From a virus, in IMG/VR virus record IMGVR_UViG_3300044712_000336, positions 32,001 to 96,000 of that record: a DNA stretch of 64,000 bases; one strand, given 5' to 3'. Shown in pieces: positions 10,517 through 32,045 of the stretch. The number at the start of each line of letters is the position of its first letter. Position 1 is the first letter of the stretch. The notes below the pieces were generated by a model. That model was not told the origin of the DNA. It did no database searches and saw only the letters and a list, made by a program, of their open reading frames with translations. A program made the translations under genes and the position numbers.

Positions 10517-10741
10517 ATGGAAGAAAAACAATATTGTGAAGAATGTGGTGAAGAACTAATTAATGGTATATGTTTTAATGATGAATGTGCATCATCACCG
10601 TATTATATAAGTGAAGATGAAGAAAATGATGAAGATTGGTGTGAATTATGTGGTGATGAGATGATTGATGGATATTGTAGTAATCCATCATGTGAAAATT
10701 CAGAAGAATACAATGAAGATAACGAAAATACAGAAGAATAA
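10517..10741 (+). CDS. acidic double zinc-ribbon-like microprotein
   Basis: Two copies of CExCG[DE]E[LM]I[ND]GxCxNxxC. Confidence 0.75.
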   Translation: MEEKQYCEECGEELINGICFNDECASSPYYISEDEENDEDWCELCGDEMIDGYCSNPSCENSEEYNEDNENTEE

Positions 10742-10908
10742 TGGCTAAAGAAGTAACAACAACAGTAAAGAATCCATCAGGAGCAGTAGTTAAACAATGT
10801 TCTTGTAAACATGAATTTCAAGATGAAATACATGGTAAAGGAATGAGAGTTCATAATGTAACAACTAAAGGTAATAAATGTACTGTATGTGGAAATATTA
10901 ATCGTTAA
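10741..10908 (+). CDS. 55-aa Cys/His metal-binding microprotein (not in ORF track)
   Basis: MAKEVTTTVKNPSGAVVKQCSCKHEFQDEIHGKGMRVHNVTTKGNKCTVCGNINR; TAATG coupling to the upstream gene. Confidence 0.75.
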   Translation: MAKEVTTTVKNPSGAVVKQCSCKHEFQDEIHGKGMRVHNVTTKGNKCTVCGNINR

Positions 10909-10918
10909 AATAAGTAAA

Positions 10919-11353
10919 ATGATACAAGTAAGGCAAAATGTATTTGAAACTAATAGTTCAAGTACACATAGTGTTAGTATTTCTTATGAAGGTGATTTAA
11001 CAGATATTCCAATACCAGATGATAATGGAATAGTTCATGTAGATACAGATGAATATGGGTGGGAAGAATGTGAATATAATGATTTATATAGTAGATTATC
11101 TTATGCAGCTACTTATGCTTTAAATTATGGAAGTGAAGAAAATAAAGAGTTATTAACTGAAGTTATTAAACAATACAGTGGTGCAAAAGAAGTATTATAT
11201 GATCATAATAATAATCCAGTTTATTGGAAACATGGTTATATAGACCATCAAAGTACAGACACAGTGGCTGATATATTTGAATCAAGAGAAAGTTTAGTTA
11301 ATTTTCTATTTAATCCAAATTCATATTTTATTACAGATAACGATAATCATTAA
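10919..11353 (+). CDS. FETNSSSTHS-motif protein A
   Basis: ATG at 10919 gives MIQVRQNVFETNSSSTHSVSI; also EYGWE, GYIDHQS and C-terminal DNDNH. Confidence 0.8.
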   Translation: MIQVRQNVFETNSSSTHSVSISYEGDLTDIPIPDDNGIVHVDTDEYGWEECEYNDLYSRLSYAATYALNYGSEENKELLTEVIKQYSGAKEVLYDHNNNPVYWKHGYIDHQSTDTVADIFESRESLVNFLFNPNSYFITDNDNH

Positions 11354-11357
11354 AATT

Positions 11358-11600
11358 ATGATACAAATAAGAAATTCAATTTTCGAAACTAATTCCATTA
11401 GCACACATAGTATTACTATTTGTACACCAGAAGAATGGAGTAAATTAGAGTCTGGTGACTATGATGGATTAGATGAAAGATTAATAGAGAAGTTTGAAAA
11501 TAATTATAGAGATTCATATATGGAAACATATAGTTATGAAACTACTACTCCGGGTGGTGAAAAAATAAGATTATTTGGAGATTATGGAAGGGATGGTTAA
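11358..11600 (+). CDS. FETNSxSTHS-motif protein B
   Basis: MIQIRNSIFETNSISTHSITI; C-terminal TPGGEKIRLFGDYGRDG. Confidence 0.8.
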   Translation: MIQIRNSIFETNSISTHSITICTPEEWSKLESGDYDGLDERLIEKFENNYRDSYMETYSYETTTPGGEKIRLFGDYGRDG

Positions 11601-12063
11601 TATAAGAAAAAATGTGTTTGAAACAAATAGTAGTTCAACACACTCCATTACTATTGGCAATATAAATTCAAAACCATTAGAATTATTAAAAGATGGTATA
11701 TTAAATCCACAACTACTAATTGATAAATATGTTGCTTATAATTATGAATATAAAATAGTATGTTATAATTTAGAAGAGAAATTAGCGTTAGTAACATTAT
11801 GGATTTTGTGTGATAGATGGAATGTTACTGATGAAATTAGAGAAGAATTATTAAATATAATTAAAGAAGAGTTTAATATAGTTAAAATATTAGATTTAAA
11901 AGAGTTAAGATTTTCTTCACAAGATGATGACGATGATATATTATTTGATTATGGTTATGAAGAAGAAATTGATATTATTTCAACAAAAAAGAAGTTATAT
12001 GAATTAATAAATATTATAAAAGATGACAGTAGATTCATTAGTGATATCAAAGAAGAAAGATAA
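11593..12063 (+). CDS. FETNSSSTHS-motif protein C
   Basis: ATG at 11593 gives MVNIRKNVFETNSSSTHSITI, in register with paralogues A and B. Confidence 0.8.
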   Translation: MVNIRKNVFETNSSSTHSITIGNINSKPLELLKDGILNPQLLIDKYVAYNYEYKIVCYNLEEKLALVTLWILCDRWNVTDEIREELLNIIKEEFNIVKILDLKELRFSSQDDDDDILFDYGYEEEIDIISTKKKLYELINIIKDDSRFISDIKEER

Positions 12064-12937
12064 ATTAGTAGAATATAAAAATGGTAATACTACAGTTACT
12101 ATATATAAAGATGGTACAAAAGTAAGAGAGTTTGAAGGTATTCCAGTAGTGGAACATCCTGAAAGTATGGATATTAAAATTACTAATTATTGTGATTTAG
12201 GATGTCCATATTGCCATGAAAATTCTACTATTAAAGGAAAACATTCAGATTTATTCTTACTAAAGGAAAAATTGGATATACTTCCAGCAGGTATTGAATT
12301 AGCATTAGGTGGTGGTAATCCATTATCTCATCCAAATTTAGTACAATTTTTAGAATGGTGTAAAACTAAGGGATTTATAGCTAATATAACTATTAATGAA
12401 AAACATATAAATAAGTATAATGAATTAATTATAGATTTAATAACAAGAGATTTAGTCAAAGGTATTGGTATATCTGTTACTGAAGGAAATATTAATCTTA
12501 TTAAATCATTATATAAATTATCATCAAATATAGTATTACATTTAATTGTGGGAATAAATACTATTGAACAAATTGAAGAATTATGTACTATAAAAGGTAT
12601 AAAAGTATTATTACTTGGGTACAAAACATTTGGTAGAGGAATATCATACTACTCTCAAGATATAACAGATAATATTAATAAATGGTATAAACATCTTCCT
12701 ACATTAGTAGGAAAGTTAGTATTAAGTTTTGATAATCTGGCTATTGAACAATTAAATGTAAAGAGATTATTTACATCAAAAGGATGGGATAGATTTTATA
12801 TGGGGGATGATTTTACTTTTACTATGTATATTGATGCAGTAGAACAACAATATGCTCCTACAAGTAGATCTGATGATAGACAATCTTTTAAAGATTATAA
12901 TGTAATACAATATTTCAAAACATTTAAAAATAAATAA
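12023..12937 (+). CDS. radical SAM enzyme (no SPASM/twitch cysteines)
   Basis: CDLGCPYC at 12191-12214, ALGGGNP (GGE-like), ANITIN, GIGIS; start could be GTG 12041. Confidence 0.9.
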   Translation: MTVDSLVISKKKDKLVEYKNGNTTVTIYKDGTKVREFEGIPVVEHPESMDIKITNYCDLGCPYCHENSTIKGKHSDLFLLKEKLDILPAGIELALGGGNPLSHPNLVQFLEWCKTKGFIANITINEKHINKYNELIIDLITRDLVKGIGISVTEGNINLIKSLYKLSSNIVLHLIVGINTIEQIEELCTIKGIKVLLLGYKTFGRGISYYSQDITDNINKWYKHLPTLVGKLVLSFDNLAIEQLNVKRLFTSKGWDRFYMGDDFTFTMYIDAVEQQYAPTSRSDDRQSFKDYNVIQYFKTFKNK

Positions 12938-14789: not shown

Positions 14790-14823
14790 GAGGGTATTAT
14801 CTTAATTGGTAATACCCTTTTTT
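14790..14823 (+). terminator. intrinsic terminator
   Basis: GAGGGTATTATC-ttaatt-GGTAATACCCTT followed by T-run. Confidence 0.85.
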
Positions 14824-15711: not shown

Positions 15712-15969
15712 ATGAATTTTGGACAAGCAATTGAAGCCTTAAAAGAAGGTAAAAAATTACAAAGATCTGGATGGAATGGTAAAGGAATGTTTGTATATTA
15801 TGTTCCTGATAATACTTTTAAAACTTTAACAGAAGTAGCTAAAACACATTTTGGTGATGAATTAAAATTTAATGCTTATTTTGCTATAAGGAATGTAAAT
15901 AATACAGTAAGTATGTGGGTTCCATCAATTAATGATTGTTTAGCAGAAGACTGGACAATTATAGAATAA
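15712..15969 (+). CDS. DUF2829 / Thoeris anti-defence Tad2-like protein
   Basis: MNFGQAIEALKEGKKLQRSGWNGKGMFV...WVPSINDCLAEDW family signature. Confidence 0.85.
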   Translation: MNFGQAIEALKEGKKLQRSGWNGKGMFVYYVPDNTFKTLTEVAKTHFGDELKFNAYFAIRNVNNTVSMWVPSINDCLAEDWTIIE

Positions 15970-20033: not shown

Positions 20034-20156
20034 ATGCCAAAATGTTATGATTGTGGTGATCCACTAGATGATGATATAGTAACATGTACTAATTATGGGA
20101 ATTGTGATGCAGCAGATTTACAAATAGATCAAAGTAATAATACAGATAATGAGTAA
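20034..20156 (+). CDS. 40-aa acidic zinc-ribbon-like microprotein (not in ORF track)
   Basis: MPKCYDCGDPLDDDIVTCTNYGNCDAADLQIDQSNNTDNE; same module as 10517..10741. Confidence 0.65.
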   Translation: MPKCYDCGDPLDDDIVTCTNYGNCDAADLQIDQSNNTDNE

Positions 20157-20679
20157 TATTAAACATGGTATGAGAATACCTAAATCATTCTTTATTACAT
20201 CTGGATATGGTGAAAGTGATAATACATTACATGCAGGATCATATCATATAATGTTAAATATGATGGGTATTGCAGGACAAAATATTATGAATTATAGTAG
20301 TGTATTACCAGCTAATTGTATAGAAATAGAAAAACCTAACTGGTTGTATAAATCAGAAGTAAGAGGTGCTGTAATGGAAGTTATAATGAGCTCCTGTAAT
20401 GGAAGAGCAGAAGAATTACTATCAGCAGGAATTATATATGCTTATACTTATGAAGATGAAGAAATGACAAAATGTACAGGTGGATTAGTATGTGAAATTA
20501 ATGGTAGTTATAGTGATGAATCTCTTGAATATAAATTACAAGAAGCATTGAAGGAAATATATAATAATGGATTTTCACATGAATACTTAGGTAGTCCTAC
20601 TATTATTAAGAAATCATTTACACCTGAATTACAATATGGTAGTGTAGGTGTAGCTTTATGTTTTATTGATTATGAATAA
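20149..20679 (+). CDS. pyruvoyl-dependent arginine decarboxylase-like proenzyme
   Basis: IPKSFFITSGYGES, GIAGQNIMNYSSVLP (Ser-Ser self-cleavage site), SAGI, GGLVCE, ALCF. Confidence 0.85.
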   Translation: MSNIKHGMRIPKSFFITSGYGESDNTLHAGSYHIMLNMMGIAGQNIMNYSSVLPANCIEIEKPNWLYKSEVRGAVMEVIMSSCNGRAEELLSAGIIYAYTYEDEEMTKCTGGLVCEINGSYSDESLEYKLQEALKEIYNNGFSHEYLGSPTIIKKSFTPELQYGSVGVALCFIDYE

Positions 20680-31990: not shown

Positions 31991-32045
31991 AAATCCTCAC
32001 TCAGTCAGCCATTACGGTTGATTTGAGTGAGGATTTTTCTTTTTT
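31991..32045. terminator. terminator at the convergence of the two genome arms (possibly bidirectional)
   Basis: AAATCCTCACTCA..TCAGCC/GGTTGA..TGAGTGAGGATTT long stem with T-run on + strand. Confidence 0.85.

Follow-up and report, generated by a model that had tools for sequence, protein, structure and literature searches.

Introduction

The described radical S-adenosylmethionine (SAM) systems that most resemble the one considered here are the anaerobic sulfatase-maturating enzymes (anSMEs), the activases of glycyl-radical enzymes, and the maturases of peptides that are synthesized ribosomally and modified post-translationally (RiPPs). We compare them with a four-gene block in a 64,000-nucleotide stretch of viral DNA (positions 32,001 to 96,000 of IMG/VR record IMGVR_UViG_3300044712_000336; hereafter ‘the window’, whose own numbering is used throughout). 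In this block three genes encoding proteins with a common N-terminal tag (clients A, B and C) precede a gene for a compact radical SAM enzyme (hereafter rSAM). Co-occurrence, natural fusions and a predicted complex support the conclusion that rSAM and the tagged proteins form a real and widespread module of two gene families that acts as one functional unit.

In the anSME system (AtsB; PDB 4K37-4K39), one radical SAM enzyme serves several whole-protein clients that share a short conserved motif near their N-termini, and that motif is both recognition element and future functional site. The module described here resembles that arrangement, and the core folds of the two enzymes are related. The anSMEs, however, have a SPASM domain with two auxiliary 4Fe-4S clusters; rSAM has three conserved cysteines only, and its clients are not sulfatases but acidic proteins for which no known fold was identified. 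The glycyl-radical activases (PFL-AE and NrdG, the latter common in phages) are likewise compact enzymes lacking an auxiliary cluster, each with one or several clients, and what they modify is a folded protein, one conserved loop of which has to move into the barrel. Unlike their targets, the tag described here contains no glycine and there is no C-terminal RVxG-type loop; rSAM also differs from these activases in that its N-terminus bears an additional hairpin and its C-terminal half is long and conserved.

The best structural matches to the rSAM domain are RiPP maturases (SuiB, 5V1Q/5V1T; SkfB, 6EFN; CteB, 5WHY; and EpeE), with E-values of 4e-8 to 3e-5. These enzymes bind their peptides partly by beta-strand addition to an N-terminal element, and a similar contact is predicted here between rSAM residues 32-36 and client residues 2-5. 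They differ in possessing SPASM or twitch auxiliary clusters and, in most cases, a PqqD-like RiPP recognition element (RRE), neither of which was found in rSAM. Their substrates are short peptides with variable cores, whereas the proteins here are 80-290 residues long with an invariant tag at residue 1, and the sequence similarity of these maturases to rSAM is confined to the SAM-cluster core. We regard the predicted binding of the client by rSAM hairpin 30-39 as a functional likeness to the RRE-containing maturases and not as membership in that group. Finally, two existing sequence families, phrog_16999 (‘Fe-S oxidoreductase’) and phrog_28997 (unknown function), are bare families with no described function or link to one another; rSAM belongs to the former (6e-76) and client A to the latter (6e-14).

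Results

The gene block and the N-terminal tag

The four genes are tightly packed on the + strand. Client A (10919..11353; 144 amino acids, isoelectric point (pI) 4.25) joins its tag to what we term an A-type body, client B (11358..11600; 80 amino acids, pI 4.43) has a short acidic B-type body, and client C (11596..12063, with its ATG at 11596; 155 amino acids, pI 4.56) has a rare C-type body. The rSAM gene (12023..12937; 304 amino acids) encodes an enzyme with an N-terminal beta-hairpin at Y18-R35. The B and C genes overlap by 5 nucleotides and the C and rSAM open reading frames (ORFs) by 41; a preliminary description of the locus, made from its letters and ORFs, had already noted the latter overlap.

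Client A starts MIQVRQNVFETNSSSTHSVSI, client B MIQIRNSIFETNSISTHSITI and client C MVNIRKNVFETNSSSTHSITI. The tag of A (residues 1-21; 10919..10981), which is the portion of that protein predicted to dock on rSAM, and those of B (residues 1-21; 11358..11420) and C (residues 1-21; 11596..11658), both delimited from the ORF list, the DNA and the tag logo, conform to a common start, M-x-x-[IV]-R-x-x-[VI]-F-E-T-N-S-[SI]-S-T-H-S. The shared start spans 18-21 residues, and its glutamate lies 9 residues past Met1 in each protein, which agrees with the initial observation of one motif at one distance from the start in three consecutive genes. The codons for its central part differ among A (ttt gaa act aat agt tca agt aca cat agt), B (ttc gaa act aat tcc att agc aca cat agt) and C (ttt gaa aca aat agt agt tca aca cac tcc). 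The tag is therefore conserved at the level of the protein and not as a recent DNA repeat, as had been proposed.

Among 295 tagged ORFs from related loci (239 of them distinct), conservation reaches 98-100% for R at position −5, F at −1 and the ensuing E, T, N, S, S, S and H, although the pattern used to collect these tags fixed E, N and the first S, and those three are not independent measurements. The residue preceding the histidine is variable (T in 73%, S in 18%), and a serine follows the histidine in 83%. The distance from Met to Glu is 9 residues in 224 tags, 10 in 46 and 11 in 16, which together make up 286 of the 295. The N-S-S-S-T-H segment previously proposed as the site of modification is present as such in A and C; B has an isoleucine in place of the middle serine, the sole such case among the 239 distinct tags. 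If B is functional, the middle serine would therefore not contribute an essential atom.

A 34-column profile of the tag, searched against 1.84 billion proteins, matched 7180 cluster representatives at a threshold of E<=1e-3, of which 875 remain at E<=1e-10. Among the 150 best matches listed, nearly all cover residues 1-33 and start at residue 1-3. With this number of matches, nearly all of the best listed being at the protein start, the tag lies far beyond what chance would produce. Three collected proteins (P0241, P0385 and P0409) contain two tags or an internal tag after a methionine; these resemble pairs of adjacent genes that were read through (perhaps by Lak-type stop-codon recoding or a calling error) and look unlike true internal tags.

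Linkage, fusions and distribution

Enzyme and tag were found together regardless of which was used to select the loci. At least one tagged ORF lies on the same strand as rSAM in 79 of the 80 best IMG/VR loci selected by the enzyme, usually directly upstream of it, and the lone exception is cut at a contig end. Conversely, rSAM lies within 10 kb in 74 of 78 loci selected by the tag, while in two of the remaining four it is 13-14 kb away and the other two are genome fragments (3% and 35% complete). Tagged proteins thus do not commonly occur without the enzyme, and the association of the two as a unit, first suggested by their adjacency in the window, is borne out by this reciprocal co-occurrence together with the fusions and the control-passing co-fold (with the tag in the barrel) described below. 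When the neighbors of 155 loci were clustered, the rSAM and tag families were the only ones shared (154 and 155 loci, respectively); there was no third shared family, the next most common being present in at most 14 of the 155. The window itself holds an rSAM of this clade and residue-1 tags in the same genome, and so carries the module.

Several natural proteins join tag, body and rSAM in a single chain (P0425, P0435, P0436 and P0438-P0440), and two further fusions (P0444 and P0449) have variant tags. The number of clients per rSAM locus ranges from one to six. The cultured Microcystis phage Ma-LMM01 carries the same gene pair, as gp130 and gp128, and in Lak megaphages four or five tagged genes stand in tandem after rSAM. 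The module is found in phages of cyanobacteria and Prevotella and on contigs of metagenome-assembled genomes (MAGs) assigned to Clostridia, Mollicutes and Bacteroidota.

The enzyme is rare in cells, with 147 relatives in 185,579 species genomes, mostly on MAG contigs, and a tag lies near rSAM in 71 of the 80 cellular-genome relatives kept. In four Christensenellaceae-type MAGs (L191, L203, L216 and L217) a chromosomal-looking rSAM is surrounded by ordinary metabolic genes, and the nearest 10 kb contain no tagged gene; these copies may represent a cellular, non-phage use of the module.

In some of the 129 unique loci, though a minority, the 5 kb around the module include genes of RNA-repair type (raw counts, in which several loci come from related phages: Thg1, 10; T4 Rnl1-type ligase, 8; RlaP, 8 and 7; RNA_ligase PF09414, 7; DUF2828/DUF7788/VWA TROVE-like, 9). 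A HisRS-like gene adjoins the module in Ma-LMM01. No RNA-repair-type gene lies next to the module in the window. GIY-YIG/NUMOD3 homing endonucleases are the most frequent other neighbors (12 loci).

Predicted complex of rSAM and client A

We co-folded the rSAM of the window with client A, a 4Fe-4S cluster and SAM, in three runs and with three controls. The interface score (ipSAE) was 0.88 (0.90, 0.88 and 0.87 in the individual runs), whereas the best of the three controls scored 0.00; in calibration, 58 of 80 solved complexes attained this mark, as did 2 of 110 mismatched pairs. Between runs, agreement in contacts was at least 70%, and the predicted local distance difference test (pLDDT) score of the partner was at least 78. 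Since no similar complex has been solved for these families, the arrangement is unlikely to have been reproduced from a known structure, although the score is still that of a prediction.

On A, the predicted interface is made up of residues 1-23; further contacts at 25-37, 85-89 and 132-133 are minor. On rSAM it involves the N-terminal hairpin (residues 30-39), all six strands of the barrel (through residues 48, 50, 92, 94, 119-123, 146-149, 169-173 and 194-198) and a conserved C-terminal part (219-269). The tightest pairs are between residues 2-5 of A and residues 32-36 and 256-260 of rSAM, and F9 of A touches rSAM residues 31, 121 and 147. The interface contains 15 of the 26 invariant columns of the enzyme family (Fisher p = 3.6e-5). 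The co-fold, the linkage and the fusions give good support to a direct partnership between enzyme and tag, which we consider very probable.

The radical SAM enzyme

The match of rSAM to PF04055 (31.3 bits against a cutoff of 29.5) places it in the radical SAM superfamily. Its cluster motif, C57-x3-C61-x2-C64, is invariant in 44 sequences, and the glycine-rich SAM-binding motif A94-x-G96-G97-G98-N-P100 is conserved; the CDLGCPYC and GGGNP strings picked out at the start correspond to these (GGGNP being residues 96-100). C57, C61 and C64 are the only conserved cysteines, any other cysteine column reaching 48% at most.

We found no match to SPASM or Fer4 at their cutoffs, which sets rSAM apart from the enzymes with SPASM or twitch auxiliary clusters, and no Pfam match to PqqD or an RRE. 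The enzyme reaches none of the named NCBIfam families: all 22 matches listed are far below their cutoffs, including those to PqqE, NrdG, viperin, MoaA and the SPASM maturases. With 23.5 bits where its cutoff demands 131.15, the NrdG2 model TIGR02495 does not place rSAM among the activases, nor does the viperin model NF038283, at 21.3 bits for a cutoff of 180, place it among the viperins; the PADLOC pVip model scores 30.6 bits, over the cluster-binding core only. The anSME model is absent among the NCBIfam matches, and the anSME client motif C/S-x-P/A-x-R is absent from the tag. When the rSAM domain of a fused homologue was compared with the PDB, the nearest structures were radical SAM enzymes that modify peptides or proteins, namely CteB (5WHY), SkfB (6EFN), SuiB (5V1T), EpeE and an anSME (4K39), with DesII likewise among the best. 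In its workings the module recalls the anSMEs and their sulfatases, or the glycyl-radical activases and the proteins they activate, and in structure the RiPP maturases, without showing the features that define any of these families.

Homologues of rSAM form 4302 clusters at E<=1e-10, and conservation in the family is unusually high, with 57-65% identity among the 120 best matches, 54% to Ma-LMM01 and 40-41% to the Lak phages. Approximately 45 of the 59 long forms of the enzyme contain inteins (PF14528, PF14890, PF05203), elements that usually occupy highly constrained genes.

The client proteins

Behind the tag, the bodies fall into several families with no detectable mutual homology. Profile-profile comparison of A, B and C (hhalign) gave probabilities of at most 4%, none significant, in agreement with the dissimilarity noted previously. 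That claim needs one amendment, in that all three proteins contain a second short motif, aromatic-G-aromatic/R-acidic (Y45GWE in A, Y75GRD in B and Y119GYE in C), which occurs in 62% of tagged proteins versus 7% of untagged neighbors or shuffled bodies. Nor is a single ordinary fold, which had been raised as a way in which the interpretation might fail, common to the bodies. Tagged proteins are acidic as a class, with a median pI of 4.57 and a pI below 5.5 in 93.5%.

A-type bodies are present in 142 of the 155 loci, B-type bodies in 74 and C-type bodies in only 4. The 375 homologues of the A-type have no Pfam match. Their invariant residues are G47 and W48, Y62, Y107-I-D-H-Q111, F131, and D142 and N143, so that the GYIDHQS and terminal DNDN segments singled out in the preliminary description are invariant features of the family. 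B-type clients are short, with only ~60-100 residues past the tag, are the sole client in some loci, and end F-G-x-Y-G-x-D-G (FGDYGRDG in the window; FGKYGYDG in Lak phage orthologues). Client C has an acidic stretch that contains FDYGYEEE.

Modeled alone with AlphaFold2 (AF2), client A has an overall pLDDT of 91.6, and its residues 1-10 are the sole low-confidence part (pLDDT 59), which fits a tag that is a free arm. This model had no match in the PDB at E<=1e-3 (Foldseek) and a best Z of 2.4 against 48,161 chains (VIA-align), while the best E-value of the client A profile against PDB sequences was 0.5. A PADLOC search with the clients returned no matches.

A 261-residue cluster in a protein atlas that includes a Tad2-like domain resembles the A model (TM-score 0.66), but a fusion of tag and Tad2 could not be confirmed: none of the tagged ORFs in the collected loci has a Tad2-like segment, and the long A-type proteins have no Pfam domain. 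A DUF2829/Tad2-like gene lies at 15712-15969 of the window, 2.8 kb downstream of the module.

Genomic setting of the block

The virus record is complete (104,710 bp, with terminal repeats and a G+C content of ~25%), and the nearest relatives of its DNA polymerase are those of crAss-like phages, at 28-30% identity. The block is flanked by genes for a DnaB-like helicase and an ATPase and by a Sak4-like gene, and there is no terminator-like site 3' of it before position 14790.

Directly upstream of A, the window encodes a 74-residue acidic protein with two CxxC...C pairs (10517-10741) and a 55-residue zinc-ribbon-like, cysteine-rich protein (10741-10908); a different cysteine-rich protein, of 57 residues, immediately precedes rSAM in 9 other unique loci. 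We considered such microproteins as obligatory electron carriers for the enzyme and rejected this as a general rule, since no such family is common to the 155 loci. Elsewhere in the window, positions 20149-20679 encode a pyruvoyl-dependent arginine decarboxylase (PF01862, E-value 1e-21), an unusual gene for a phage.

Discussion

In our view the module is most economically explained if the tags of several acidic clients are the substrate that rSAM modifies, and we would put the probability of this reading at roughly 55%. In its favor, the tag is predicted to fill the substrate cavity and is the one disordered part of the client, as many as six unrelated bodies share a single enzyme, and an N-terminal clamp would explain the fixed spacing from Met1.

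In such a mechanism the enzyme would hold the extreme N-terminus of the client by beta-strand addition, by means of its hairpin 30-39 and the conserved C-terminal segment 256-263. This clamp would serve as a ruler, explaining the fixed distance of 9-11 residues between Met1 and the motif, and would deliver the T-N-S-S-S-x-H loop into the barrel beside SAM and the 4Fe-4S cluster. The 5'-deoxyadenosyl radical would then take a hydrogen from one tag residue (candidates being the first or third serine, the threonine and the histidine), and the resulting covalent change would convert each client to its active form. Oxidation of the anSME type and crosslinking of the SPASM type, both among the outcomes originally envisaged, are weighed against by the absence of auxiliary-cluster cysteines. 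Because the enzyme has no auxiliary cluster, we favor chemistry that needs no extra electron path, such as activase-like installation of a radical, viperin-like dehydration of Ser or Thr to a dehydro residue, or epimerization. In A-type clients the modified tag could cooperate with the conserved polar pocket, which is not part of the predicted interface. The clients, which are acidic, are located in regions of the early or middle replication type; we suggest that they may function in early or middle infection, for example in host takeover or counter-defense.

Several considerations weigh against modification of the tag, beginning with the fact that the modification itself is something we infer. 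The co-fold score is the model's own confidence, and custom alignments and ligands depart from the conditions of its calibration; in a single-chain AF2 model of the natural fusion P0438 the tag has a pLDDT below 50, with only 6 alignment rows at that position. Ten contiguous invariant polar residues also resemble an active-site or ligand-binding loop, and the invariant polar cluster of A (YIDHQ, DNDN) lies outside the predicted interface. Fusions of an enzyme to its substrate are less common than fusions of subunits, and the known protein-modifying relatives of rSAM use auxiliary clusters, which this enzyme lacks. Finally, three of the four Christensenellaceae-type genomes encode tagged proteins elsewhere, unlinked to rSAM.

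Some of these same points would suit an arrangement in which the tag is an unmodified peptide that docks on rSAM and completes its active site, with the clients being interchangeable specificity or regulatory subunits of a shared enzyme. Single-chain fusions of body and enzyme are typical of subunits, one enzyme would serve many partners, the invariant polar residues of the tag could complete an active site, and client A has a conserved pocket of its own. In the prediction, however, the tag spans six barrel strands beside SAM and would probably leave little room for another substrate. The clients would bring that substrate, for which a nucleotide, RNA, DNA and a host protein are all candidates. 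A nucleic acid would accord with the location of the module within replication or nucleic-acid modules (in the window, the DnaB-like helicase, ATPase and Sak4-like genes) and with the recurrence near it, in a minority of other phages, of RNA-repair genes (Thg1, Rnl1, RlaP, RNA ligase and TROVE-like), but strongly acidic clients suit nucleic-acid binding poorly. Further points against it are that some loci have as their sole client a B-type protein, with only ~60-100 residues past the tag, and that a third conserved gene was not found among the neighbors of the 155 loci. We consider this explanation unlikely on balance.

It is improbable, in our estimation, that the two families share a pathway only, with no direct contact, the tag then being a catalytic or ligand-binding loop of small enzymes or binders that use or remove a small molecule made by rSAM. 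The T-N-S-S-S-x-H-S segment, following a first strand, does resemble the phosphate- or metal-binding loops of many folds (a resemblance only), but it is the unpacked, low-confidence part of A alone, and the co-fold (0.88 versus 0.00 for controls) is centered on it. The A-type body, with its invariant D, H, Q, D and N, would suit such a role; one tag is nevertheless attached to bodies with no detectable homology, including 80-residue proteins too small for enzymes. Identity of 57-65% between the rSAMs of very different phages is as expected for a small-molecule enzyme, yet a loop of this kind would leave the strict distance to Met1 unexplained.

Although a ribosomal peptide or cofactor made by modifying the tag and then cutting it from a C-terminal follower body has precedents in bottromycin precursors (for the follower) and PqqA/PqqE (for the cofactor), and would fit the RiPP maturases that are the structural neighbors of rSAM, a core-like segment as invariant as that of PQQ or mycofactocin precursors and a tag predicted inside the barrel, we regard it as highly improbable given that no protease or other tailoring gene is conserved nearby in the 155 loci, that up to six paralogues with large, family-conserved bodies (including the polar cluster of A) would be superfluous for one small product, and that fusions to the enzyme exist.

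Returning to the tag as substrate of rSAM, we tentatively propose, at odds somewhat below even, that this minimal enzyme installs a reactive or catalytic residue (a dehydro- or radical-bearing Ser or Thr, or a modified His) at a fixed distance from the N-terminus of diversifying acidic effectors employed in host takeover or counter-defense.

The module is probably an undescribed protein-modification system. A full-text literature search for the motif strings returned nothing relevant, literature searches on radical SAM enzymes with phages yielded no description of the module, and the main text of the Ma-LMM01 transcriptome paper (PMC5780444) does not mention gp128-130. It is nonetheless very common (more than 4300 rSAM clusters and 7180 tag clusters), if nameless, and ranges from crAss-like phages to Lak megaphages and cyanophages, with no Pfam family for the clients and no solved fold identified for the main one. 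A direct test is within reach, since Ma-LMM01, with its gp130/gp128 pair, is a cultured phage. If the tag is indeed modified, this would be a new radical SAM reaction on whole proteins by an enzyme without auxiliary clusters, its 20-residue portable recognition tag could serve as a tool, and a function would be available for thousands of phage ‘hypothetical proteins’. If, further, a reactive residue is installed on diversifying effectors, both the class of protein modification and the phage effector family would be new.

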